From the sequence record NC_041919.1: a stretch of 64,000 bases of DNA; one strand, given 5' to 3'. Shown here in pieces: positions 1,187-59,499 of the stretch (within the stretch, counting starts at the first letter, position 1; each line of letters opens with the position of its first letter). The translations under genes and the position numbers were made by a program. The DNA is from Escherichia phage HP3. The notes beneath the pieces are model-generated. The model had not been told where the DNA came from, made no database searches, and worked only from the letters and a program-made list of their open reading frames with translations.

Positions 1187-2152
1187 AAAACTGTAACTAT
1201 CAATAAGGGTATCTACTTCGGTAAAGAAATCTCTGGAACTTTTGAGCTCTTAGGTGAATGGTTCCCAGATAATGCTCCGGTAGATGCACAAGGAGATGGT
1301 AAAGTTTTTGTTGAAATTGACGGTAAGCGTCGCGGTGTTTGGGTTTACAAATCAGACATTTCATATGATGGTGTAAAAGTTGAAGAAGTTAAAGAATCGT
1401 ATGAAGATATGAAAACCCGCATTAATAAAAGATTTAATGTTATGGGAATGATGACGAATGGTATTATTAACGGAAACATTCGTTCATTAATTATCTCTGG
1501 TGCGGCGGGTATTGGTAAAACGTATTCTTTAGATAAAGCTTTAAATAAAGCAAATGATATTGGATACATTGAATATAAAAGCATTAATGGTAAAATCTCT
1601 GGTATTGGTCTTTATGAGCAGCTTTGGAATAATCGTGAAGAGAATTCTGTACTTTTGATTGATGATGTGGATGTTTTCTCTGATATGGACATTCTTAATC
1701 TTCTGAAAGCTGCTCTGGACACCGGAGAGACCCGCAAAGTCTGCTGGAGCACTGCATCTTCTTACTTAGAAGAAAAAGGCATTGAGCGTGAGTTTGAATT
1801 TAAAGGAACGATTGTTTTTATCACAAACGTTGACATTGACCGCGAATTAGACCGTGGTACTAAACTTGCTCCACATTTACAAGCATTAGTTTCCCGCTCG
1901 GTTTATTTAGATTTGGGTGTTCACACTAATGAAGAAATTATGGTCAGGGTTGAAGATGTTATTCTTTCAACTGACATGATGCAAAAACGCGGTCTTTCTG
2001 ATGAAGAAACTTATAAAGCATTATCATGGATGAAAGTCAATGTTAATCGTTTACGCAATGTTTCACTGCGTACTGCACTTTATCTTGCTGACTTTATTAT
2101 GACCGACAAAAACGGTTGGGAAGAAATCGCTGAGGTTACTCTTCTGAAATAA
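1184..2152 (+). CDS. P-loop NTPase (AAA-like), hypothetical
   Basis: ATG at 1184 with GGAG RBS (track ORF 1016 is an upstream extension through the promoter); Walker A GAAGIGKT and Walker B LLIDDVD. Confidence 0.7.
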   Translation: MKTVTINKGIYFGKEISGTFELLGEWFPDNAPVDAQGDGKVFVEIDGKRRGVWVYKSDISYDGVKVEEVKESYEDMKTRINKRFNVMGMMTNGIINGNIRSLIISGAAGIGKTYSLDKALNKANDIGYIEYKSINGKISGIGLYEQLWNNREENSVLLIDDVDVFSDMDILNLLKAALDTGETRKVCWSTASSYLEEKGIEREFEFKGTIVFITNVDIDRELDRGTKLAPHLQALVSRSVYLDLGVHTNEEIMVRVEDVILSTDMMQKRGLSDEETYKALSWMKVNVNRLRNVSLRTALYLADFIMTDKNGWEEIAEVTLLK

Positions 2153-2253
2153 TTCATAAGAGGCCTTCTATGACAAAAAGGCAGTTCAGAAATAGATTAT
2201 ATGGACTGCCATCAAAAAGATGATTAGAATTAAACTGGTAAATGGAGGTAGTG

Positions 2254-2556
2254 ATGTTATACTCAAAGGCTCGTGAAATTTACGAAACTAAAATTAAAGA
2301 CGCGGTTCATCAGTTCGCAACGACAATGCGTTGGACAAATGACTGGGAATACTCCAAGAATCATAAGAAGCCCTTGGTGACAAGAAAGGCTCATATGTTA
2401 GTGTTAATAGACCGTGAGCAGATTAAAGCCCGAGAAGCCCTCCAGAATCATAAAAAGGCTGCCTTTGAATGGTTTATGGATAACACTGCTCCTGAGACTA
2501 AGAAAGCGGTAAGCGCATGGTTCAGTGGAAAAAATTGTGAAAGAAGTTTCTTTTAG
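2254..2556 (+). CDS. hypothetical protein (100 aa)
   Basis: second ATG of track ORF 2242, preceded by GGAGGT RBS. Confidence 0.5.
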   Translation: MLYSKAREIYETKIKDAVHQFATTMRWTNDWEYSKNHKKPLVTRKAHMLVLIDREQIKAREALQNHKKAAFEWFMDNTAPETKKAVSAWFSGKNCERSFF

Positions 2557-2558
2557 TG

Positions 2559-2588
2559 GTTTACAAGACTGTTCCTCTGTGGTACTAT
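2559..2588 (+). promoter_or_regulatory. T4-type early promoter within stem-loop cassette
   Basis: GTTTAC 2559-2564, TACTAT 2583-2588; inverted repeat TGTTCCTC (2570-2577) / GAGGAACA (2605-2612) brackets the -10. Confidence 0.65.
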
Positions 2589-2616
2589 ACAACTATCAAC
2601 TACGGAGGAACACAAA

Positions 2617-3144
2617 ATGAACGCTAAAGATATTTTCAACCTGGTAAATTACAACGATGGTAAATTTAAATCTGAAGCACAAAGCAAGTTCTTTAATGAC
2701 ATCTCAATCGGAGGTGAAATCACGGTTGACGGAGGACAAATTTACAAATCTCGTTGGAATTGGATCGTTATTATCGATGAGATTGGTATTGTAGAAATTT
2801 ACAAGAATACGAATAAAAATCGTACATTACACTGGTCTCGTGATACTAACGAACAGTACAAAAAGGATAAAGCATCTAAATTATCTCGTGTAACTCAAGA
2901 AGATATTGAGTTCATCAAGAAAGATATTTTGATGTATGATAACTTAATTGCTGAAGAGCAAGCTGTTATTGATAAATTTGATGAGATTAAAGCTTCTCGT
3001 GAAATTCCTGATTTTATGAAAGAATCAGTAAATGAACGATACACTCTCATTTCAGAGCGTATTGAAACTTACAAAAAGCAAAGAGCTGAACGCCAAAATA
3101 CTCTTCGGAAGTTTGAAGAACGGTTAAAGACGGTACTCGCATAA
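2617..3144 (+). CDS. hypothetical protein (175 aa)
   Basis: ORF with GGAGGAAC RBS upstream. Confidence 0.6.
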   Translation: MNAKDIFNLVNYNDGKFKSEAQSKFFNDISIGGEITVDGGQIYKSRWNWIVIIDEIGIVEIYKNTNKNRTLHWSRDTNEQYKKDKASKLSRVTQEDIEFIKKDILMYDNLIAEEQAVIDKFDEIKASREIPDFMKESVNERYTLISERIETYKKQRAERQNTLRKFEERLKTVLA

Positions 3145-3199
3145 CCGCTTTATACCAAGGATGGTATAATGGTTCTAAGCCCTTTTAATTGAGATTATT

Positions 3200-3607
3200 A
3201 TGAAACAGTTGATAATTAAAAGATTGAATTTATTGATATGTTGTTTATGTGTAGTAGTTGCATATGGTTATTACGCAATTAATGATTATATGCATTATAA
3301 AGATTATGATGTTACTGTAGTTAATACCTTTACAGGAACTCAAGGAAAGGGGTCTAGTTTATCGTTTATTGCTGTATATGAACTCAAAGACGGTTATAGA
3401 TTTAGCGAATATATTTCACCAGAGATGTATTCATCAATAGAAAAAGGCGATAATATTACTGTAAGTTTACGTCCTTTCGACGTAAAACAGACATTGTTTG
3501 ATAATATTGTTTGGTTCTTTGGAATGGTATTAGTTCAATCTGTGTGTGGTGCTTATATAGTCTGTTCCATCTTATTCTGTATATTTAGTAAAATTGAAAT
3601 TGAGTGA
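3200..3607 (+). CDS. hypothetical membrane protein (135 aa)
   Basis: ORF with hydrophobic N- and C-terminal segments. Confidence 0.5.
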   Translation: MKQLIIKRLNLLICCLCVVVAYGYYAINDYMHYKDYDVTVVNTFTGTQGKGSSLSFIAVYELKDGYRFSEYISPEMYSSIEKGDNITVSLRPFDVKQTLFDNIVWFFGMVLVQSVCGAYIVCSILFCIFSKIEIE

Positions 3608-3614
3608 GGAAAAT

Positions 3615-4502
3615 ATGTCAGTAGTAATTAATAATGTCAATGCAGTAATTAAATCTTTAGTTAATAAAAAATTGAATGAATGGACTGTACTTCGTCGTGG
3701 AGAGCCAGATAAATTTTTTCATAGATTTAACCCAACTTTGGATTTGAATGTTATTGACAGAGATGTTCATGCTGAAATTTTAGATAAATTTAAAGTTGAT
3801 ATTGGGTTTGGATTAGATAAACATTTACAACGAACAAACGGGTCTGGAATGGGTTTATCTAATCGCATCATGAAAGCCCTTAATAAAATTGGAGCGTTGT
3901 CTCGTATTAATGCGAGTGAAATCCTTCGCAATTATAATAAAGGATATGACCTTTATGGTCGATTAATGCCGAAATTATCATTTGACCAAATGATCGCAGA
4001 TTTGTGGGAAAATCAACGACGATTATTAGCATTAGGCGCTCGATTAGCTAAAGGTCTAGATAAACAAATGATTTTTAAGACCAATAATACAGAAGACCTT
4101 AAATGCTTTAAATTTAGTATTCGTGGCGATGATTATTATATCAGAGCTCACTCTACAGATTATGTTAATATGGGGCATCATCTCTGTTTAGCTTTTGAAG
4201 TTTTAAAAGAAGCCGGAACATTAGAATATTCATCTGGTGCAAAATGCCCTATTGGTTCAAGTTGTATTTTAATTTATCGCCCGGATGAATCCAGTTCAAC
4301 TAAATTGCCTACAAAACCTGTACCAGTTCGTAGTAATGAAAAACATTCTGAGCAAATTGATTATTTTAATAAGCAAATTGAAGAGCTGAATATTTCTATT
4401 CAACAATATGATGATGAAATTTTCAGACTATCTGGACTGAGTAGTAAAGCTAAATCTGAGCGTGAAAAGTTAATTAAAATTATCGATTTACTTAAATCTT
4501 AA
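3615..4502 (+). CDS. hypothetical protein, coiled-coil C-terminus (paralog family member)
   Basis: ATG 3615 after GAGGAAAATATG; track ORF 3594 starts at an upstream TTG. Confidence 0.6.
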   Translation: MSVVINNVNAVIKSLVNKKLNEWTVLRRGEPDKFFHRFNPTLDLNVIDRDVHAEILDKFKVDIGFGLDKHLQRTNGSGMGLSNRIMKALNKIGALSRINASEILRNYNKGYDLYGRLMPKLSFDQMIADLWENQRRLLALGARLAKGLDKQMIFKTNNTEDLKCFKFSIRGDDYYIRAHSTDYVNMGHHLCLAFEVLKEAGTLEYSSGAKCPIGSSCILIYRPDESSSTKLPTKPVPVRSNEKHSEQIDYFNKQIEELNISIQQYDDEIFRLSGLSSKAKSEREKLIKIIDLLKS

Positions 4503-4510
4503 GGAACACC

Positions 4511-5533
4511 ATGAAAACTCGTTCTCAAATTGAAGATATGGTTCGTAATGCCAGCTATACTCGTGATGCTATGACATTTTTGTGCGAAAATAATTTAGAC
4601 CTTGGTAAAGTTAATTGTTCCATTCACGCCTTTAAACATCTGAACAGCAGTGAATGGGTGCGTAATTTTAATGAAGCTGGGTATATTACTCAAATGACTG
4701 CTCGTGAACAGCTCACCGATTTCTGTAAAACTATTGATTATAAAAATCCTCTATTTGTTCAAGGTGTTGGTCAGAGTAAGGTCGATTTATCATCTGGATT
4801 TTTCAATCCAAATCATTATCGTATTGAATGGAGATTTATTGCTCTATTCCGTAAACAATTAAAGCAAATTTTGTCTACTGCTAGTCGATTAAAAGGTTCT
4901 GATATTAACTTAAAGAATCTGAAATTTGATGGTTATACTCTTCAGATGGAAGTAAGACCATTAAAAGAAAATAACAGAACTGCACGAATTAGCTTTAAAC
5001 CTAATACAAAAAATTCTCTTTCAATTTGTGAATGCCTTAAATCACAGTTGACAGAAGCATTTAAGTATATGGATGTAGTTGCCGCGGTTCAGTCTAAGAT
5101 TTTACCTCATTTTGAGCGAAATTGGGAACATACAACAACGTATGAACTTGATATGATCGTTTCATTTAAATACGATTTTTTGAGAAAGGACGAAGTCCCG
5201 CAAGAGAAAAAGCAGGAAGTGCAAGATATCTTAAATTTATCCAATTACTCATCAAACGATCCTAAATTTTGGATGTATAGTTCAGGTAATAAAGATACAT
5301 GGAAATTCAATAAAGTGAATTTTCTTCCTGTTGAAAATCCGAGTCTTAAACCTGTTGAAAAATGGCACGCGGATGCGATTGAGAAGTCTATCAAGGCAGT
5401 AGATGATGAACTCGTTAAAGCAACTAATGAAGTGTTAGAAGCTGAAAAGATGCTAGAAAAAGCTCAAGAAAAAGTCAAAAATCTTACGAAGCAACGTTCT
5501 AAACTGAACAACGCACTAAATGCACTAAACTAG
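4511..5533 (+). CDS. hypothetical protein, paralog family (340 aa)
   Basis: shares WRFIALFRKQLKQILSTASRL-type motif with the next ORF; coiled-coil C-terminus. Confidence 0.6.
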   Translation: MKTRSQIEDMVRNASYTRDAMTFLCENNLDLGKVNCSIHAFKHLNSSEWVRNFNEAGYITQMTAREQLTDFCKTIDYKNPLFVQGVGQSKVDLSSGFFNPNHYRIEWRFIALFRKQLKQILSTASRLKGSDINLKNLKFDGYTLQMEVRPLKENNRTARISFKPNTKNSLSICECLKSQLTEAFKYMDVVAAVQSKILPHFERNWEHTTTYELDMIVSFKYDFLRKDEVPQEKKQEVQDILNLSNYSSNDPKFWMYSSGNKDTWKFNKVNFLPVENPSLKPVEKWHADAIEKSIKAVDDELVKATNEVLEAEKMLEKAQEKVKNLTKQRSKLNNALNALN

Positions 5534-5562
5534 TTTACTTTGCCACAAGGATGTGGTATAAT
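5533..5562 (+). promoter_or_regulatory. T4-type early promoter
   Basis: GTTTAC 5533-5538, TATAAT 5557-5562; CCACA..TGTGG inverted repeat in spacer; near-identical to promoter at 51770. Confidence 0.65.
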
Positions 5563-5590
5563 GTTCTTACTTTCTACTGAGGAGATTAAT

Positions 5591-6592
5591 ATGACTCGTA
5601 ACGAATATATCAAATCATTCAATAGCGTTATTGATGATAAAGTTAAACCTGTGTTTAGTCAGAATAGTGTTATTTCCATTATCAATCAATGGCTCAATAA
5701 TATTGATGCAAGTATTGTTTCTTCAAGCAAATTTATTCATGAAGTTCATAAAATTTCTAGTCGCGAATATAAAGATGATATTAAGGAAACTTTTAAAGGT
5801 TCTCGTCTTCTTTCATATTTAGTTAATCAAGATATTCTTGGTAAATTTGGGAAAGAAATTAAACGAACTAAAGATGTAGTAGGATACAGTTGGTTCGGTG
5901 ATGTTAATTCTTATCATCTTAATAATAAAGAAGACCCTGAGAATATTTTTACTCGTCGTTGGATTAGTAATTTTAGACTTTTCAAGAAGCAAATTCTAAA
6001 ATCAGCTTCTAAATTATGCTATGGTGATTATCGTCAAATCCATCCTTGGGCTTCTGATATGATTATCATAAAAGAATATGAGCTTGATAAAAATAAAGCA
6101 GCTATTTTTGTGAATTATGAATTTTTTACACCAGAAGCTAATCAAAAGAACATTAATAAATTTTTCTCAATTGCTAGCGATATAACTCGTCAGTTAGAGA
6201 CCGCATTACTTTGTATGGAAACAGTAGAAAATATTCATACTTATCCTTTTAAGAATATATGCGGTTGGGAAGGATATAAAATTGTAGTTAGTCTCCGTGA
6301 AGTAAAGTGTGCGTACTCACCGACTGATAAAGAAATTTACCAACAAAAATGTGATGAAATTGTGAATACTCCTAAAGAAGAAACTACCCTTGAGGAACTA
6401 ATGGAATGTCTTGACGATTCGCCTGAACCAGTAGAAATTCGTCCAGAAGTTATTGCACTAGAAAAAGCTTATAAAGAAGTTCTAGAAATTTCTAATAAAG
6501 CGCAGAAAGAATATGAGCAGGCTAAAAAGATTTGGGAAGAATCCGTTAATCGTCTTGATCGTCTTGAACAAGCTTTACAGTTAATTAAGTAA
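5591..6592 (+). CDS. hypothetical protein, paralog family (333 aa)
   Basis: ATG 5591 after GAGGAGATTAAT; track ORF 5540 start lies inside the promoter. Confidence 0.6.
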   Translation: MTRNEYIKSFNSVIDDKVKPVFSQNSVISIINQWLNNIDASIVSSSKFIHEVHKISSREYKDDIKETFKGSRLLSYLVNQDILGKFGKEIKRTKDVVGYSWFGDVNSYHLNNKEDPENIFTRRWISNFRLFKKQILKSASKLCYGDYRQIHPWASDMIIIKEYELDKNKAAIFVNYEFFTPEANQKNINKFFSIASDITRQLETALLCMETVENIHTYPFKNICGWEGYKIVVSLREVKCAYSPTDKEIYQQKCDEIVNTPKEETTLEELMECLDDSPEPVEIRPEVIALEKAYKEVLEISNKAQKEYEQAKKIWEESVNRLDRLEQALQLIK

Positions 6593-9504: not shown

Positions 9505-9978
9505 ATGTTATTGACTGGCAAATTATACAAAGAAGAAAAACAGAAATTTTATAATGCACAAAACGGTAAATGCTTAATTTGCCAACGAGAACTAAATCCT
9601 GATGTTCAAGCTAATCACCTTGACCATGATCATGAATTAAATGGACCAAAAGCAGGAAAGGTACGTGGATTGCTTTGTAATCTCTGCAATGCCGCAGAAG
9701 GTCAAATGAAGCATAAATTTAATCGTTCTGGCTTAAAGGGACAAGGTGTTGATTATCTTGAATGGTTAGAAAATTTACTTACTTATTTAAAATCCGATTA
9801 CACCCAAAATAATATTCACCCTAACTTTATTGGAGATAAATCAAAGGAATTTTCTCGTTTAGGAAAAGAGGAAATGATGGCTGAGATGCTTCAAAGAGGA
9901 TTTGAATATAATGAATCTGACACTAAAACACAGTTAATAGCTTCATTTAAGAAGCAGCTTAGAAAGAGTTTAAAATGA
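9505..9978 (+). CDS. 49: endonuclease VII (Holliday-junction resolvase)
   Basis: 157 aa, CLICQ..HLDHDHE..CNLCN zinc/His motifs; size and sequence fit T4 gp49. Confidence 0.85.
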   Translation: MLLTGKLYKEEKQKFYNAQNGKCLICQRELNPDVQANHLDHDHELNGPKAGKVRGLLCNLCNAAEGQMKHKFNRSGLKGQGVDYLEWLENLLTYLKSDYTQNNIHPNFIGDKSKEFSRLGKEEMMAEMLQRGFEYNESDTKTQLIASFKKQLRKSLK

Positions 9979-11792
9979 CAATTGAAAAAGAAATTGAAGG
10001 ATTGATTCATAAAACTAATAAAGACCTTTTGAACGAGAATGCTAATAAAGATTCTCGTGTTTTTCCAACTCAACGGGACCTTATGGCTGGTATTGTGTCT
10101 AAACACATTGCCAAAAATATGGTCCCGTCTTTTATTATGAAAGCGCATGAAAGCGGAATTATTCATTTCCATGATATTGATTATTCCCCTGCTCTTCCAT
10201 TTACTAATTGTTGTTTAGTAGATTTAAAAGGAATGCTTGAGAACGGATTTAAGCTTGGTAATGCGCAGATTGAAACTCCTAAATCAATCGGTGTTGCTAC
10301 TGCAATTATGGCACAAATTACTGCACAGGTTGCTTCCCATCAATATGGCGGAACGACTTTTGCGAATGTAGATAAAGTACTTTCTCCTTATGTTAAACGC
10401 ACATATGCAAAACATATTGAGGATGCAGAAAAATGGCAAATCGCTGATGCGTTGAATTATGCTCAATCTAAAACAGAAAAAGACGTATACGATGCATTCC
10501 AAGCTTATGAATATGAAGTAAATACTCTCTTTAGTTCAAACGGACAAACACCTTTTGTAACAATTACATTTGGTACGGGAACTGACTGGACTGAACGAAT
10601 GATTCAGAAAGCAATTCTGAAAAATCGTATTAAAGGTCTTGGTCGTGATGGGATAACTCCTATTTTCCCTAAGCTTGTTATGTTTGTTGAAGAAGGTGTT
10701 AATCTTTATAAAGACGATCCGAACTATGATATTAAGCAGCTTGCTCTAGAGTGTGCAAGCAAAAGGATGTATCCTGATATTATTTCAGCTAAGAACAATA
10801 AAGCTATCACTGGTTCATCTGTTCCTGTTTCTCCAATGGGTTGCCGTAGTTTCTTGAGCGTATGGAAAGATTCGACTGGTAATGAAATTCTTGATGGACG
10901 TAATAATCTTGGTGTTGTAACACTGAATCTTCCTCGTATTGCGTTGGATTCTTATATTGGAACACAGTTCAATGAACAGAAATTTGTTAAATTATTCAAT
11001 GAGCGAATGGATTTATGTTTTGAAGCTTTGATGTGTAGAATTAGTTCCTTAAAAGGAGTTAAAGCGACTGTTGCTCCTATTCTTTACCAAGAAGGTGCAT
11101 TCGGGGTTCGTCTTAAACCTGATGACGATATAATTGAGTTATTTAAAAATGGTAGAAGTTCAGTGTCTTTAGGATACATTGGTATTCACGAATTGAATAT
11201 TCTTGTCGGTCGTGATATTGGACAGGAAATTTTAACTAAAATGAATGCTCGTCTTAAACAGTGGACTGAAAGAACTGGGTTTGCTTTTAGCTTGTATTCT
11301 ACTCCTGCTGAAAACCTTTGCTATCGCTTCTGTAAACTTGATACAGAAAAATATGGAAGTGTAAAGGATGTTACTGATAAAGGCTGGTACACTAACAGTT
11401 TCCATGTTTCAGTAGAAGAAAATATTACTCCGTTTGAAAAGATTTCTCGCGAAGCCCCGTATCATTTCATTGCAACAGGTGGTCACATTTCTTATGTTGA
11501 ACTTCCTGATATGAAAAATAACTTAAAAGGTCTTGAGGCTGTATGGGATTATGCTGCACAACATTTAGATTATTTTGGTGTTAATATGCCAGTAGATAAA
11601 TGTTTTACGTGTGGAAGTACCCATGAAATGACTCCTACTGAAAACGGGTTTGTTTGTTCTATTTGTGGAGAAACTGATCCTAAAAAGATGAACACAATAA
11701 GAAGAACATGCGGTTATTTGGGAAACCCGAACGAACGCGGATTTAATCTCGGTAAAAATAAAGAAATCATGCATAGGGTTAAACACCAATGA
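9975..11792 (+). CDS. nrdD: anaerobic ribonucleoside-triphosphate reductase NrdD
   Basis: 605 aa, C-terminal glycyl-radical motif RRTCGYLG and Cys cluster CFTCGS..CSICG; uninterrupted frame. Confidence 0.95.
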   Translation: MTIEKEIEGLIHKTNKDLLNENANKDSRVFPTQRDLMAGIVSKHIAKNMVPSFIMKAHESGIIHFHDIDYSPALPFTNCCLVDLKGMLENGFKLGNAQIETPKSIGVATAIMAQITAQVASHQYGGTTFANVDKVLSPYVKRTYAKHIEDAEKWQIADALNYAQSKTEKDVYDAFQAYEYEVNTLFSSNGQTPFVTITFGTGTDWTERMIQKAILKNRIKGLGRDGITPIFPKLVMFVEEGVNLYKDDPNYDIKQLALECASKRMYPDIISAKNNKAITGSSVPVSPMGCRSFLSVWKDSTGNEILDGRNNLGVVTLNLPRIALDSYIGTQFNEQKFVKLFNERMDLCFEALMCRISSLKGVKATVAPILYQEGAFGVRLKPDDDIIELFKNGRSSVSLGYIGIHELNILVGRDIGQEILTKMNARLKQWTERTGFAFSLYSTPAENLCYRFCKLDTEKYGSVKDVTDKGWYTNSFHVSVEENITPFEKISREAPYHFIATGGHISYVELPDMKNNLKGLEAVWDYAAQHLDYFGVNMPVDKCFTCGSTHEMTPTENGFVCSICGETDPKKMNTIRRTCGYLGNPNERGFNLGKNKEIMHRVKHQ

Positions 11793-12421
11793 ATTATGAC
11801 AGAATCTATTCAAATCTAGTTAATTCTGCTGAACACCCATCTAAGCCCCGTCAAACTAAAGCCGGGTATGAACTTCATCATATAATTCCAAGAAGTATGG
11901 GTGGTTCAGATGATTTAGACAACTTAGTATTTTTAACTTATAAGGCCCACTATACTGCTCACCATTTATTGGCTAAAATATATGGTGGAAAGATGTATGA
12001 TGCATATTGGATAATGAGTAATAGTAAGCATAGAAAAGTTACTTCTTCACAATACGCGTATGCAAAAGCTAAGAAATTTGAAAATCAGCGTGGCGCAAAA
12101 AGAAGCGATAAAACTAAGAAGCTAATGAGCATAGCTAGGTCTAAAGTAACTCTTCCTGATGATTTTGGAAAAAGGATATCTGATGGGCTAACAGGAAGAA
12201 CTTTGTCTACTAGTCATAAAGAGCATATCAAAAATAGTTCTAGAAATCGCTTTAACACCAAAACGGTTATTGGCTATTCACCAGACGGAAATACAATAGA
12301 ACTAACTGGAGCAACTGAAATAAGAAATGCAGGATTTTTTCATTCTGCTGTTTATAAATGTTGCAAAGGAATTCAATCTATTCATAAGGGATATACTTGG
12401 AAATATAAAGATGAATTATGA
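11789..12421 (+). CDS. mobC: HNH homing-endonuclease-like protein (mobC-like)
   Basis: 210 aa with HHIIPRSMGGSDDLDNLVFL..HYTAHH HNH motif; sits between nrdD and nrdG; starts with the same seven residues as nrdG. Confidence 0.8.
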   Translation: MNYDRIYSNLVNSAEHPSKPRQTKAGYELHHIIPRSMGGSDDLDNLVFLTYKAHYTAHHLLAKIYGGKMYDAYWIMSNSKHRKVTSSQYAYAKAKKFENQRGAKRSDKTKKLMSIARSKVTLPDDFGKRISDGLTGRTLSTSHKEHIKNSSRNRFNTKTVIGYSPDGNTIELTGATEIRNAGFFHSAVYKCCKGIQSIHKGYTWKYKDEL

Positions 12422-48651: not shown

Positions 48652-49064
48652 TGGCTATTAAATTTGAAGTTAATAAATGGTATCAATTTAAAAATAAACA
48701 AGCTCAAGAAAATTTTATTAAAGACCATACTGATAACGGAATCTATGCACGCCGTTTAGGTATGCATCCTTTTAAAATTTTAGATGTGGATGCTCTTGGG
48801 CGTCCTATTAAAATTATGTCATTTGCTGGAAATTTAGTACTATCTTCTGGTAAAGATATTTTGGATGAAGATTTTATTTGGCTTTCATCGAATGAAGCTG
48901 AATTCTTTAATGAAGTTGAAAATCCATACCAGGCAGCTGAAGAGCAGGAAGAATCTGCACCGATAATTGATCAATCTAAATTCCCTGTAATGAAAGTTAC
49001 TATTGAAAATGATGAACAGGCATGGTCCTTGTATCAGATGTTGAAAGCTCACTTTAAGGAATAA
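48651..49064 (+). CDS. hypothetical acidic protein (137 aa)
   Basis: ORF with TAATG junction. Confidence 0.55.
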
Positions 49065-49066
49065 TT

Positions 49067-49243
49067 ATGCCGCTTTATGATTATAAATGTCAATCAAAAG
49101 ACTGCGCAAAAGAATACGAAAAAATCAAGAAAATTTCTGAAAGAGATACTGATGTATGTCCTGATTGTCATCGGATTGCTGTTCGGTTAGTTTCCGCTCC
49201 TAGACATGTGAATGGTGGTTTTTACGACTTGCTTAAAGGGTGA
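49067..49243 (+). CDS. small zinc-ribbon protein (58 aa)
   Basis: CQSKDC...CPDC Cys pairs; below track cutoff. Confidence 0.45.
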   Translation: MPLYDYKCQSKDCAKEYEKIKKISERDTDVCPDCHRIAVRLVSAPRHVNGGFYDLLKG

Positions 49244-49245
49244 TT

Positions 49246-49617
49246 ATGTTTAAAATCGGTAAGAAATATCGCATTCGCGAAGGTGAAGAAAAGAAATATC
49301 TATTTTCTGCTATTTATAGGAATGGTTCTATTAGTAATGTAATATCTACAAGCGAATTTATCGTTGAAGATATGAAAGGTAATAACGTTACAATGATTAG
49401 TACAGCATCTGGAAATGACGGAAAAATTCTTCACAGTTTTCAGAGTAATGTTCTAATATATGATGAAGAATTTAATCTATTCGAAGAAGTTCCCGAAGAT
49501 TTTGATTTTGAATGCACTATCACTATGAAATCTGGTGACCCTCTTTCTTTTACAGTTAAAGATGAAAGAAGCCGCTTGAGAGTTATTAGTCTTCTTCAAG
49601 CCATTAAATTTAAGTGA
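49246..49617 (+). CDS. hypothetical protein (123 aa)
   Basis: ATG 49246 inside track ORF 49240. Confidence 0.5.
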   Translation: MFKIGKKYRIREGEEKKYLFSAIYRNGSISNVISTSEFIVEDMKGNNVTMISTASGNDGKILHSFQSNVLIYDEEFNLFEEVPEDFDFECTITMKSGDPLSFTVKDERSRLRVISLLQAIKFK

Positions 49618-49622
49618 AAATT

Positions 49623-49883
49623 ATGAAATATATTAATCGTTCTATCGCAGCATTAGTATTAGCAGTGTCTTTAATAGGATGTACTGATGCTGATAATGCA
49701 ACCAAAGTTTTGTCTTCAAGTGGTTTTACTAATATTGAAATCACTGGATATAATTGGTTCGGTTGCTCTGAAAATGATTTCCAGCATACTGGATTTCGTG
49801 CTATTGGACCTACTGGGCAGAAAGTAGAAGGAACAGTATGTTCTGGACTATTCTTCAAGGATTCGACTATTCGTTTTAAATAA
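49623..49883 (+). CDS. putative lipoprotein (86 aa)
   Basis: ATG 49623; signal peptide with lipobox LIGC. Confidence 0.5.
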   Translation: MKYINRSIAALVLAVSLIGCTDADNATKVLSSSGFTNIEITGYNWFGCSENDFQHTGFRAIGPTGQKVEGTVCSGLFFKDSTIRFK

Positions 49884-49884
49884 A

Positions 49885-49925
49885 AGGCCTTCGGGCCTTT
49901 AGCTTTATGATTACCGGAGTATAAT
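49885..49925 (+). promoter_or_regulatory. UUCG hairpin fused to MotA-box middle promoter (gene 39)
   Basis: AGGCC-TTCG-GGCCT then TTTAGCTTTA (49898-49907), 12-nt spacer, TATAAT (49920-49925). Confidence 0.55.
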
Positions 49926-49952
49926 ATTCCCGAAACCAAACGAGGATAAGTG

Positions 49953-51770
49953 ATGATTAAGAATGAAATTAAAATTCTGAGCGATATTGAACATATCAAA
50001 AAGCGTAGCGGCATGTATATTGGCTCTTCTGCTAATGAAATGCATGAGCGCTTTCTGTTTGGTAAATGGGAAAGTGTTCAGTATGTACCTGGTCTTGTTA
50101 AGCTTATTGATGAAATTATCGATAACTCAGTAGATGAAGGTATTCGTACTAAGTTTAAATTCGCAAATAAAATTAATGTTACTATTAAAAACAATCAAGT
50201 AACAGTTGAAGATAACGGTCGCGGTATTCCACAAGCGATGGTCAAAACACCTACCGGTGAAGAAATTCCTGGTCCTGTTGCTGCATGGACTATTCCAAAA
50301 GCAGGTGGTAACTTTGGTGATGATAAAGAACGTGTCACCGGTGGTATGAATGGTGTTGGTTCTAGTTTGACAAACATTTTTTCTGTGATGTTTGTCGGTG
50401 AAACTGGTGATGGTCAAAATAATATTGTAGTTCGTTGTTCAAATGGCATGGAAAATAAATCATGGGAAGATATTCCTGGAAAATGGAAAGGAACTCGTGT
50501 TACTTTCATTCCTGATTTTATGTCATTTGAAACTAATGAGCTGTCTCAGGTTTATCTTGACATTACACTGGACCGTCTCCAGACACTCGCAGTAGTTTAT
50601 CCTGATATTCAATTTACCTTTAATGGTAAAAAGGTTCAGGGCAATTTTAAGAAATATGCACGCCAATATGATGAGCATGCTATTGTTCAAGAACAAGAAA
50701 ATTGTTCTATTGCGGTTGGTCGTTCACCGGATGGTTTTCGTCAATTAACATACGTTAATAACATTCATACTAAGAATGGTGGCCATCACATTGACTGTGT
50801 TATGGATGATATTTGTGAAGACCTTATTCCACAAATCAAACGTAAGTTCAAAATTGATGTGACTAAAGCACGCGTTAAAGAATGTTTGACTATCGTTATG
50901 TTTGTCCGTGATATGAAAAACATGCGATTTGATTCTCAAACTAAAGAGCGTTTGACTTCTCCATTTGGTGAAATCCGTAGTCATATTCAACTTGATGCTA
51001 AAAAGATTTCACGTGCTATTCTAAATAATGAAGCAATTCTAATGCCGATTATTGAAGCTGCTTTGGCTCGTAAATTGGCGGCAGAAAAAGCAGCAGAAAC
51101 TAAAGCAGCTAAAAAGGCTTCTAAAGCTAAGGTTCATAAACATATCAAAGCGAATCTTTGTGGTAAAGATGCTGACACTACTCTTTTCTTGACTGAGGGT
51201 GATTCGGCTATCGGATATCTTATTGATGTTCGTGATAAAGAACTTCATGGTGGTTATCCATTGCGCGGTAAAGTTCTCAACAGTTGGGGTATGTCATATG
51301 CTGATATGCTTAAAAACAAAGAATTGTTTGATATTTGCGCAATCACTGGATTAGTTCTCGGTGAAAAAGCTGAAAACTTGAATTATCATAATATCGCTAT
51401 TATGACTGATGCTGACCATGATGGTCTAGGAAGCATTTATCCTTCTCTGCTCGGGTTTTTTAGTAATTGGCCAGAACTGTTTGAGCAAGGAAGAATTCGT
51501 TTTGTCAAAACTCCTGTAATCATCGCTCAGGTCGGTAAAAAACAAGAATGGTTTTATACAGTCGCTGAATATGAGAGTGCTAAAGATGCTCTACCTAAAC
51601 ATAGCATCCGTTATATTAAAGGACTTGGCTCTTTGGAAAAATCTGAATATCGTGAGATGATTCAAAATCCAGTATATGATGTTGTTAAACTTCCTGAGAA
51701 CTGGAAAGAGCTTTTTGAAATGCTCATGGGAGATAATGCTGACCTTCGTAAAGAATGGATGAGCCAGTAG
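49953..51770 (+). CDS. 39: DNA topoisomerase II large subunit gp39 (GyrB-like), unsplit
   Basis: 605 aa from ATG 49953; GHKL ATPase and Toprim (EGDSA) motifs in one frame. Confidence 0.95.
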   Translation: MIKNEIKILSDIEHIKKRSGMYIGSSANEMHERFLFGKWESVQYVPGLVKLIDEIIDNSVDEGIRTKFKFANKINVTIKNNQVTVEDNGRGIPQAMVKTPTGEEIPGPVAAWTIPKAGGNFGDDKERVTGGMNGVGSSLTNIFSVMFVGETGDGQNNIVVRCSNGMENKSWEDIPGKWKGTRVTFIPDFMSFETNELSQVYLDITLDRLQTLAVVYPDIQFTFNGKKVQGNFKKYARQYDEHAIVQEQENCSIAVGRSPDGFRQLTYVNNIHTKNGGHHIDCVMDDICEDLIPQIKRKFKIDVTKARVKECLTIVMFVRDMKNMRFDSQTKERLTSPFGEIRSHIQLDAKKISRAILNNEAILMPIIEAALARKLAAEKAAETKAAKKASKAKVHKHIKANLCGKDADTTLFLTEGDSAIGYLIDVRDKELHGGYPLRGKVLNSWGMSYADMLKNKELFDICAITGLVLGEKAENLNYHNIAIMTDADHDGLGSIYPSLLGFFSNWPELFEQGRIRFVKTPVIIAQVGKKQEWFYTVAEYESAKDALPKHSIRYIKGLGSLEKSEYREMIQNPVYDVVKLPENWKELFEMLMGDNADLRKEWMSQ

Positions 51771-51799
51771 TTTACTTTACCACAAGGATGTGGTATAAT
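51770..51799 (+). promoter_or_regulatory. T4-type early promoter
   Basis: GTTTAC 51770-51775 (overlaps gene 39 stop), TATAAT 51794-51799; 31/33 identical to promoter at 5533. Confidence 0.65.
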
Positions 51800-51824
51800 T
51801 AATTGGGCAAATGAGGATATTGAA

Positions 51825-52028
51825 ATGAAATCATATAAAGTAAATTTAGAACTTTTTGATAAAGCAGTTCATCGAGAATATAGAATCATTCAACGCTTTT
51901 TCGATATGGGAGAAGCCGAAGAATTTAAAAACCGCTTTAAAGATATTAGAGATAAAATTCAATCCGACACTGCAACTAAAGATGAATTACTAGAAGTTGC
52001 TGAAGTTATTAAGCGTAATATGAATTAA
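51825..52028 (+). CDS. hypothetical protein (67 aa)
   Basis: ORF between gene 39 and rIIA. Confidence 0.5.
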
Positions 52029-52038
52029 TGAGGAAATT

Positions 52039-54216
52039 ATGATTATCACCACTGAAAAAGAAACAATTCTTGGCAATGGTTCTAAATCAAAAGCATTTAG
52101 CATCACAGCATCTCCTAAAGTATTTAAAATTCTGTCATCTGATTTGTATACAAACAAGATTCGTGCAGTAGTCCGTGAATTAATTACTAATATGATTGAT
52201 GCCCATGCACTTAATGGAAATCCTGAAAAATTTATCATACAAGTTCCAGGACGATTAGATCCGCGATTTGTTTGTCGAGATTTTGGTCCGGGTATGAGTG
52301 ATTTTGATATTCAGGGTGATGATAATTCTCCTGGGTTATATAATTCATACTTCAGTTCATCTAAGGCTGAATCTAATGACTTTATTGGCGGGTTTGGTTT
52401 AGGTTCTAAATCTCCGTTTAGTTATACTGATACATTTAGTATTACTTCGTATCATAAAGGTGAAATTCGTGGTTATGTAGCTTACATGGATGGTGATGGT
52501 CCACAGATTAAACCTACATTCGTAAAAGAAATGGGTCCAGATGATAAAACTGGTATTGAAATCGTAGTTCCAGTTGAAGAAAAAGACTTTAGAAACTTTG
52601 CTTATGAAGTTTCTTATATCATGCGACCATTCAAAGATTTGGCTATCATTAATGGTCTTGACCGCGAAATTGATTATTTTCCGGATTTTGATGACTATTA
52701 CGGTGTAAATCCAGAAAGATACTGGCCTGATCGTGGTGGATTATATGCTATCTATGGCGGTATTGTTTATCCTATCGATGGTGTTATTAGAGACCGTAAC
52801 TGGCTAAGCATTCGCAATGAAGTGAATTACATTAAGTTTCCAATGGGTTCACTTGATATTGCTCCATCTCGCGAGGCTCTTTCACTGGATGATCGTACTC
52901 GTAAAAATATTATTGAACGAGTTAAAGAACTCAGTGAGAAAGCATTTAATGAAGATGTAAAACGATTTAAAGAATCCACATCTCCCCGTCATACATATCG
53001 TGAATTGATGAAGATGGGATATTCTGCTCGAGATTATATGATTAGTAATTCAGTCAAATTTACGACTAAAAATCTGTCATATAAGAAGATGCAAAGCATG
53101 TTTGAACCTGATAGTAAGTTATGCAATGCAGGAGTTGTGTATGAAGTAAATCTTGACCCTCGACTGAAGCGCATTAAGCAAAGTCATGAAACTTCAGCCG
53201 TTGCATCAAGTTATCGTCTGTTTGGTATTAATGCAACAAAAATTAATATCGTTATTGATAATATTAAAAATCGTGTTAATATTGTCCGTGGATTAGCACA
53301 TGCGTTAGATGATAGTGAATTTAATAACACTTTGAATATTCATCACAACGAACGCCTTCTGTTTATTAATCCAGAAGTAGAATCGCAGATTGATTTGCTT
53401 CCTGATATTATGGCGATGTTTGAAAGTGATGAAGTTAACATTCATTATTTGTCAGAAATCGAAGCTTTAGTTAAAAGCTATATTCCAAAGGTAGTTAAAA
53501 GTAAAGCTCCTCGTCCTAAAGCTGCTACAGCATTTAAGTTTGAAATTAAAGACGGGCGCTGGGAAAAAGAGGAATTATTTACGCTCACATCAGAAGCAGA
53601 TGAAATTACTGGGTATGTAGCGTATATGCATCGTTCTGATATTTTCTCTATGGATGGTACTACATCTCTTTGTCATCCATCTATGAATATTTTGATTCGT
53701 ATGGCTAATCTTATTGGCATTAATGAGTTTTATGTTATTCGTCCGCTTTTGCAGAAAAAGGTAAAAGAACTCGGTCAGTGCCAATGTATTTTTGAAACTC
53801 TGCGTGATTTATATGTAGATGCTTTTGATGATGTAGATTATGATAAGTACGTAGGTTATTCAAGTTCAGCTCAACGATATATTGATAAAATTATCAAGTA
53901 TCCTGAACTAGATTTTATGATGAAGTACTTCAGTACAGATGAAGTTTCTGAAGAATATACACGACTCGCTAATATAGTTAGTTCATTGCGCGGTGTATAT
54001 TTTAATGGTGGAAAAGATACCATCGGTCATGACATCTGGACAGTAACTAATCTCTTTGATGAATTATCACGTAATGCTTCAAAAAATAGTGATAAAATGG
54101 TTGCTGAGTTTACCAAGAAATTCCGTATTGTTTCCGACTTCATCGGTTATCGTAACTCTTTGAGTGATGATGAAGTTTCCCAAATCGCTAAAACTATGAA
54201 GGCCCTTGCGGCCTAA
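52039..54216 (+). CDS. rIIA: rIIA protein
   Basis: 725 aa; GHKL-like ATPase N-terminus; size and position fit T4 rIIA. Confidence 0.95.
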
Positions 54217-58170: not shown

Positions 58171-59499
58171 ATGCAACTGAATAATCGTGATTTAAAAAGT
58201 ATCATTGATAATGAAGCATTGGCTTATGCTATGTACACGGTTGAAAATCGTGCCATTCCAAATATGATTGACGGATTTAAGCCAGTTCAACGATTTGTTA
58301 TTGCTCGAGCTCTTGATTTGGCACGAGGAAATAAAGATAAGTTTCACAAACTCGCTTCTATCGCAGGCGGTGTAGCGGACCTTGGATATCATCATGGTGA
58401 AAACTCTGCGCAAGACGCAGGTGCTTTGATGGCTAACACTTGGAATAATAACTTTCCTCTGTTAGACGGTCAAGGAAACTTCGGTTCTCGTACTGTCCAA
58501 AAGGCAGCAGCAAGTCGTTATATTTTTGCTCGTGTAAGTAAAAATTTCTATAACGTATATAAAGATACTGAATATGCTCCGGTACATCAAGATAAAGAAC
58601 ACATTCCGCCTGCTTTCTATTTGCCTGTTATTCCTACTGTTCTTCTTAATGGCGTTTCCGGTATTGCAACTGGTTATGCAACTTACATTCTTCCTCATAG
58701 TGTTTCTTCTGTCAAGAAAGCTGTACTGCAAGCTCTTCAAGGAAAGAAAGTAACTAAACCGAAGGTAGAATTCCCAGAATTTCGTGGTGAAGTCGTTGAA
58801 ATTGATGGGCAATATGAAATTCGTGGAACATATAAGTTTACTTCACGAACTCAAATGCATATCACTGAGATTCCATATAAGTATGATCGTGAAACTTACG
58901 TGAGTAAAATCTTAGACCCACTTGAAGATAAAGGCTTCATTACATGGGATGATGCTTGTGGTGAGCATGGCTTTGGCTTCAAAGTTAAATTCCGAAAAGA
59001 ATACTCTTTGAGCGATAATGAAGAAGAACGCCATGCAAAAATTATGAAAGACTTCGGACTGATTGAGCGTCGTTCTCAGAATATTACAGTCATTAATGAG
59101 AAAGGAAAGCTGCAAGTTTACGATAACGTAGTTGATTTAATCAAAGACTTCGTTGAAGTTCGTAAAACTTATGTCCAAAAACGAATTGATAACAAAATCA
59201 AAGAAACTGAATCAGCATTTCGTTTAGCTTTTGCCAAGGCACATTTCATTAAGAAAGTAATTTCAGGTGAAATTGTTGTACAAGGTAAAACTCGCAAAGA
59301 ACTGACCGAAGAACTTTCTAAAATTGATATGTATTCTTCTTATGTTGATAAACTAGTTGGAATGAACATTTTTCATATGACTTCCGACGAAGCAAAGAAA
59401 CTTGCTGAAGAAGCTAAAGCCAAAAAAGAAGAAAACGAATATTGGAAAACTACTGATGTAGTTACAGAATACACCAAAGATTTAGAGGAAATCAAATGA
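58171..59499 (+). CDS. 52: DNA topoisomerase II medium subunit gp52 (GyrA-like)
   Basis: 442 aa; size and sequence fit T4 gp52. Confidence 0.95.
   Translation: MQLNNRDLKSIIDNEALAYAMYTVENRAIPNMIDGFKPVQRFVIARALDLARGNKDKFHKLASIAGGVADLGYHHGENSAQDAGALMANTWNNNFPLLDGQGNFGSRTVQKAAASRYIFARVSKNFYNVYKDTEYAPVHQDKEHIPPAFYLPVIPTVLLNGVSGIATGYATYILPHSVSSVKKAVLQALQGKKVTKPKVEFPEFRGEVVEIDGQYEIRGTYKFTSRTQMHITEIPYKYDRETYVSKILDPLEDKGFITWDDACGEHGFGFKVKFRKEYSLSDNEEERHAKIMKDFGLIERRSQNITVINEKGKLQVYDNVVDLIKDFVEVRKTYVQKRIDNKIKETESAFRLAFAKAHFIKKVISGEIVVQGKTRKELTEELSKIDMYSSYVDKLVGMNIFHMTSDEAKKLAEEAKAKKEENEYWKTTDVVTEYTKDLEEIK

Follow-up and report, generated by a model that had tools for sequence, protein, structure and literature searches.

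An uninterrupted topoisomerase II large-subunit gene (gene 39), without a MobA element, in Escherichia phage HP3

Gene 39, which encodes the large subunit of topoisomerase II, was found to be a single open reading frame of 605 codons in a 64,000-nt stretch of the genome of Escherichia phage HP3 (NC_041919.1; this whole stretch is referred to as the window). We regard it as the ordinary, uninvaded "parental" gene 39 allele of a T4-like phage, with the MobA element absent from the locus and from the window, and place the probability of this reading at roughly 97%. The one 605-aa gp39 is predicted to pair with gp52 to give a two-subunit type IIA topoisomerase like that of T2 and T6. In T4, gene 39 is split by a MobA homing-endonuclease element, which also introduces a 50-nt translational bypass. 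The gene, its signals and the neighbours that bear on this reading are as follows.

49942..49946, plus strand: Shine-Dalgarno sequence GAGGA, six bases 5' of the gene 39 ATG (read from the sequence)
49953..51770, plus strand: gene 39, topoisomerase II large subunit, 605 codons and a stop (ORF listing, Pfam, PHROGs and PDB match)
51408..51422, plus strand: codons of the TOPRIM DxDxD metal-binding motif, D486, D488 and D490 (numbered as in the T6 structure paper, PMC11461880)
51825..52028, plus strand: rIIA.1, 67 aa (Pfam PF24210, T4_RIIA1, E-value 1.4e-33; phrog_1683)
52039..54216, plus strand: rIIA, 725 aa (annotated as RIIA lysis inhibitor in the 100%-identical record of phage Pinarejo)
54228..55166: ORF after rIIA, expected from its location to be rIIB (ORF listing and Pinarejo record)
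58171..59499, plus strand: gene 52, topoisomerase II medium subunit, 442 aa (phrog_551, E-value 6e-221; PDB 8YO3_A and 8YLU_A over residues 1-442)

The ORF listing gives a plus-strand frame at 49950..51770 that begins with GTG and encodes 606 aa; an ATG lies one codon further on, at 49953, and yields the 605-aa product, which opens with MIKNEIK, the N-terminus of gp39 in T4, T2 and T6. An internal stop codon was sought across the 605 codons of gene 39 and none was found. The predicted protein combines GHKL ATPase, transducer and TOPRIM domains in a single chain: Pfam matches, all above the gathering score, were obtained for HATPase_c (residues 47-149), DNA_gyraseB (250-384) and TOPRIM_C (519-604), and residues 1-605 were assigned to phrog_543 ("DNA topoisomerase II large subunit") with an E-value of 2e-295. 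Of the TOPRIM residues, E415 was located within an EGDSA motif, and D486, D488 and D490 within DADHDG; in T6 numbering, E415, D486 and D488 bind metal and D490 contacts DNA (PMC11461880). When 49000..52300 was scanned for promoters and terminators, the number of sites was no higher than in shuffled controls.

The position of rIIA matches that in T4, T2 and T6, and the coding sequence of gp52 lies 6.4 kb downstream of gene 39 in the same window. On the upstream side, a 125-aa ORF of unknown function (phrog_622) occurs on the plus strand at 49240..49617, between 39.2 and 39.1; its counterpart is of similar size in T6 and shorter in T2, and none is annotated there in T4. It is followed at 49614..49883 (plus strand) by an 89-aa homologue of gp39.1 (phrog_902) with a lipoprotein-like signal at its start (…LAVSLIGC), compared with the 65 aa annotated for 39.1 in T4. 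In addition, a 134-aa antisense ORF at 49610..50014 (minus strand) runs across part of gene 39.1 and the first codons of gene 39. Pinarejo lists it as a "hypothetical protein"; Pfam returned nothing for it, and the call is probably spurious.

Both T2 and T6 carry an 1818-nt gene 39 at 2447..4264 of their genomes, followed by a 204-nt rIIA.1 and a 2178-nt rIIA. Alignment of the window's gp39 with the T6 and T2 proteins filled 605 columns with zero gaps, and revealed one amino acid difference from T2 (F70 in the window, L70 in T2) and two from T6 (D173 and Q526 in the window, T173 and H526 in T6). At the nucleotide level, gene 39 aligned with that of T6 without gaps over 1818/1818 positions, with 48 differences (97.4% identity); the comparison with T2 consisted of the full protein alignment together with 131 nt around the junction at the nucleotide level. 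Among PDB entries, T6 gp39 (8YLU chain C) covered residues 1-605 of the window's gp39 in one stretch, and an artificial T4 gp39-gp60 fusion (8YO3) aligned to it in two. Gene 39 of the window shares with that of T2 and T6 its length (605 aa), its neighbours rIIA.1 and rIIA, and its catalytic residues, and departs from them in point differences alone. The topoisomerase II of T2 and T6 is a two-subunit enzyme of gp39 and gp52, represented by T6 structures 8YLU, 8YO5 and 8YOD, and work on T6 has gone as far as purifying the protein, assaying it and solving its structure (PMC11461880). Since the window's protein differs at only one or two residues from those of T2 and T6, and the T6 protein has been assayed, we infer that the gp39-gp52 enzyme of this phage would be active.

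These results bear out an earlier note, made from the sequence alone, which had described the large subunit as a single 605-aa frame followed by a small ORF and rIIA, in an uninterrupted arrangement of the T2/T6 type. The ORF listing and the gapless alignment agree on the frame, the small ORF is rIIA.1 (PF24210), and T2 and T6 share both the 1818-nt gene and its neighbours. A frameshift or gap in the 3' third of the ORF, which the note had named as the observation that would speak against it, was sought by alignment and was not seen. The "T2/T6-type" label stands in that the locus matches both phages, with the nuance that the intact form is not peculiar to them and is carried by the majority of sequenced Tequatrovirus.

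The T4 record shows, in transcription order, gene 39 (516 aa), mobA and 60.1, gene 60, rIIA.1 and rIIA. Its gene 60 is joined from two pieces, and a "non-coding translational bypass region" of 50 nt is annotated at 2803..2852. What the earlier note had said of T4, namely that the homologous region is split into genes 39 and 60 around mobA and that gene 60 contains a 50-nt bypass, is thus what the record contains. Alignment with T4 genes 39 and 60, which the note had proposed as a check, placed both halves on one continuous protein: by BLASTP, residues 1-473 of the window's gp39 corresponded to residues 1-473 of T4 gp39 (466/473 identical) and residues 472-605 to residues 27-160 of T4 gp60 (128/134 identical). 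BLASTN resolved the DNA into three blocks, window 49621..51370 against T4 5661..3911 (96.8% identity), 51379..51424 against T4 2899..2854 (46 nt, just 78%) and 51435..52300 against T4 2793..1928 (97.8%). Nucleotides 3910..2900 of T4 (~1.0 kb), which encode mobA together with the tail of gp39 and the head of gp60, had no counterpart between window positions 51370 and 51379. The junctions relative to T4 fall at 51370/51379 and 51425/51426, and the following features of the window mark them.

51369..51371, plus strand: codon Ala473, the last residue common to T4 gp39; in T4 the MobA element starts right after it (BLASTN end at 51370, junction sequences)
51372..51425, plus strand: codons 474-491 (ENLNYHNIAIMTDADHDG), the native counterpart of T4 homR (BLASTN and codon comparison)
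51423..51428, plus strand: GGT CTA (Gly491-Leu492), contiguous in the window; the 50-nt coding gap of T4 sits between these codons (codon comparison with T4 gene 60)

At the left junction the window reads GGT GAA AAA GCT and continues GAA AAC TTG AAT TAT, whereas T4, homologous up to and including the GCN codon for Ala473, then runs through 43 foreign codons before a stop. Codons 474-491 are replaced in T4 by homR, an element-borne look-alike that is about 75-78% identical; compared with homR of phage T4T, this region of the window was identical at 36/48 nt. At the bypass site, the window reads GAC CAT GAT GGT CTA GGA AGC, which encodes D488-H-D490-G491-L492-G-S without interruption, whereas T4 gene 60 reads GAT CAC GAT GGA, then 50 nt that begin with TAG and end with GGA, and then TTA GGT TCT. 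The take-off glycine codon of T4 is therefore a GGA followed by UAG, and at the same place the window has GGT followed by CTA. Overall, the coding parts common to the window and to T4 genes 39, mobA and 60 were 97% identical as DNA and 96-99% identical as protein, and gene order was alike on both sides. T4 has in addition the 43-aa gp39 tail (CTE), mobA, the 30-aa gp60 head (NTE), the homR copy and the 50-nt coding gap, all of which are missing from the window; its topoisomerase II is a three-subunit enzyme made with a 50-nt translational bypass, in contrast to the two-subunit enzyme predicted for the window phage.

Some peculiarities of the T4 reference sequence (NC_000866) were seen in the course of these alignments. 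Its gp39 has L-I-R at residues 326-328 and D at residue 355, where T4T has F-D-S and A; the window (codons 50928..50936 for residues 326-328), T2 and T6 side with T4T at these positions. Over the element region, the reference was 98.7% identical to 13 other records of T4, T4T, RB55 and RB59 and 11 nt longer, and its mobA is labelled defective (in AF158101, a pseudogene). These oddities could be errors in an old reference sequence or strain-specific changes.

The whole 64-kb window was searched for the element by tblastn with queries taken from phage T4T, namely its intact MobA (272 aa), its CTE (43 aa) and the 30 aa that are unique to its NTE. Matches to the two extensions were at chance level only (E above 1) and lay elsewhere in the window, and with MobA no match was obtained at the gene 39 locus; the sole MobA-like match in the window lay at 11789..12400, with 30% identity and an E-value of 2e-16, and corresponds to mobC. 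A blastn search of the window with the element DNA gave two matches only, one to mobC and one to the 46 nt that correspond natively to homR. The take-off stem-loop motif, allowing up to 3 mismatches, had 0 matches in the entire window. The statement that this genome has no gene 60, no mobA and no bypass element was thus upheld for the 64-kb window by the tblastn, blastn and motif searches. The possibility that a fragment of the element had moved to another part of the window was also considered and rejected, the mobC paralogue and the 46-nt homR counterpart being all that turned up.

The ORF that gave the MobA-like match (11789..12421, plus strand) encodes a 210-aa HNH homing endonuclease (phrog_655, E-value 4e-43; Pfam HNH) and is situated between nrdD and nrdG. 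Its DNA is 99.8% identical to T4 mobC, and its protein is 30% identical to MobA; it is mobC, a paralogue of MobA, and not MobA itself. Since mobC DNA was present in just 30 phage records, the window phage has the rare mobC of T4 and lacks mobA. The adjacent nrdD (9975..11792, plus strand), which encodes the large subunit of the anaerobic ribonucleotide reductase, is likewise a continuous ORF of 605 aa (1818 nt). The T4 nrdD extends over 2851 nt, its extra length being due to a group I intron that encodes I-TevII. This intron appears to be absent from the window, and if so, nrdD would be another empty homing site.

The region 49600..52300 of the window was 100% identical over its 2.7 kb to Escherichia phages Pinarejo, HP3.1 and HP3.2. 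A further 487 records matched it at 95-99% identity, and almost all of these are T4-like phages of Escherichia, Shigella, Yersinia or Salmonella. In Pinarejo, the gene 39 ORF is annotated as "DNA topoisomerase II large subunit". When a 301-nt probe spanning both junctions (51250..51550) was used to count intact loci, the junction was uninterrupted in 454/498 matching phage records (~91%), and the T4 insertion (T4 2794..3910) was present in 43 records, whose carriers are T4 isolates, RB55, RB59, HY01, HY03, vB_EcoM_112 and a few others. An intact gene 39 is the rule among sequenced Tequatrovirus, and the T4 state is the exception. The unsplit gene reported here is already known, in that identical genomes have been deposited, the T2/T6 arrangement is textbook knowledge, and parental and invaded states have been published. 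The correct annotation is one full-length topoisomerase II large subunit, without gene 60 and without recoding.

The MobA element has been described as a mobile cassette of 1097-1106 nt that enters "Topo2L" at aa 466-473 and ends just after D490/G491 (Manning and Atkins, bioRxiv 10.1101/2022.08.31.505936). Its entry removes 55-75 nt of native gene sequence, in place of which come a diverged homR (67-81% identical) and the bypass cassette, and each invaded clade has "parental" genomes that are 96-99% identical and lack the element (bioRxiv 10.1101/2022.08.31.505936). Compared with the "parental Topo2L" of that work (e.g., RB14), the junctions in the window, after A473 and after G491, fall inside the published ranges, and the 46-nt block (78%) and the 97% identical flanks reproduce the published description. 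Its DNA identity to the invaded relative likewise lies at 96-99%, the level published for parental/invaded pairs. No difference of substance was found, and the window phage is one more member of the parental group.

An unsplit gene could also arise by reversion, if an ancestor had carried the MobA element and then lost it, either through precise excision or when an intact allele recombined into its place. Progressive loss of MobA and "hit-and-run" refusions are documented in Aeromonas phages (bioRxiv 10.1101/2022.08.31.505936), and the presence of T4's rare mobC in the window at 99.8% identity implies that exchange with T4-like genomes has happened. The documented refusions, however, retain CTE and NTE, whereas the window lacks any CTE/NTE remnant and its gp39 shows nothing inserted when set against T2 and T6. 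In addition, codons 474-491 belong to the T2/T6 type (a single synonymous change separates them from T2) and not to the T4 homR type (36/48 nt), and the intact form is the large majority (454/498). Taken as a whole, these observations make secondary loss improbable. A hit-and-run refusion like those of the Aeromonas clade, or another imprecise loss, was ruled out, as no CTE- or NTE-derived residues are present. The variant in which the split gene was swapped for an empty allele would leave no trace, and the present nature of the locus would be unchanged by it.

Nothing was found in favour of an assembly or consensus error that had collapsed or skipped an insertion of ~1.1 kb. The same uninterrupted junction is present in 454 independent phage records, T2 and T6 included, three deposited genomes are 100% identical to the window over 2.7 kb, and the reading frame and catalytic motif are intact across the junction, so the chance of such an artefact is close to nil. 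A frameshift or bypass needed elsewhere in the ORF, for which nothing was found either, is scarcely credible given 605 codons without an internal stop and a zero-frame translation that lines up unbroken, from residue 1 to 605, with the solved and expressed T6 protein, with two residues differing from T6 gp39 and one from T2 gp39.

An uninvaded gene 39 raises the matter of its standing as a target for MobA. According to Bonocora et al. (2011), as related by Manning and Atkins (bioRxiv 10.1101/2022.08.31.505936), the nick that MobA makes in T2 gene 39 lies about midway along the homR-equivalent region, a bypass insert 20 nt downstream of the nick protects invaded genomes, and MobA efficiently converts MobA-free phage in mixed infection. 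Cleavage by MobA and uptake of the element in mixed infection have been reported for T2 only (bioRxiv 10.1101/2022.08.31.505936). Between 51371 and 51454, the window differs from T2 at one synonymous position, 51395 (ATC in the window, ATT in T2), where it shares its base with T6, and the candidate MobA site has no bypass insertion 20 nt downstream. Because this stretch is one synonymous base from the T2 sequence nicked by MobA and is not interrupted by a bypass, the gene 39 locus is, on sequence grounds, probably an uninvaded and susceptible MobA homing site.

The emptiness of the site could instead be maintained, either because the MobA element is selected against or because some feature of the lineage, possibly the synonymous C at 51395, lowers homing. 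This suggestion derives from mobC, whose 99.8% identity to the T4 gene shows exchange with T4-like genomes, yet the MobA site is empty. We consider it unlikely; if it were true, there would be more to the empty locus than MobA not having invaded it yet.

As an uninvaded parental allele, the gene 39 locus of this phage could be used as a natural empty target in MobA homing experiments. It also provides one more data point indicating that the split gene and ribosomal bypass of T4 are a minority state, recently acquired, among T4-like phages.
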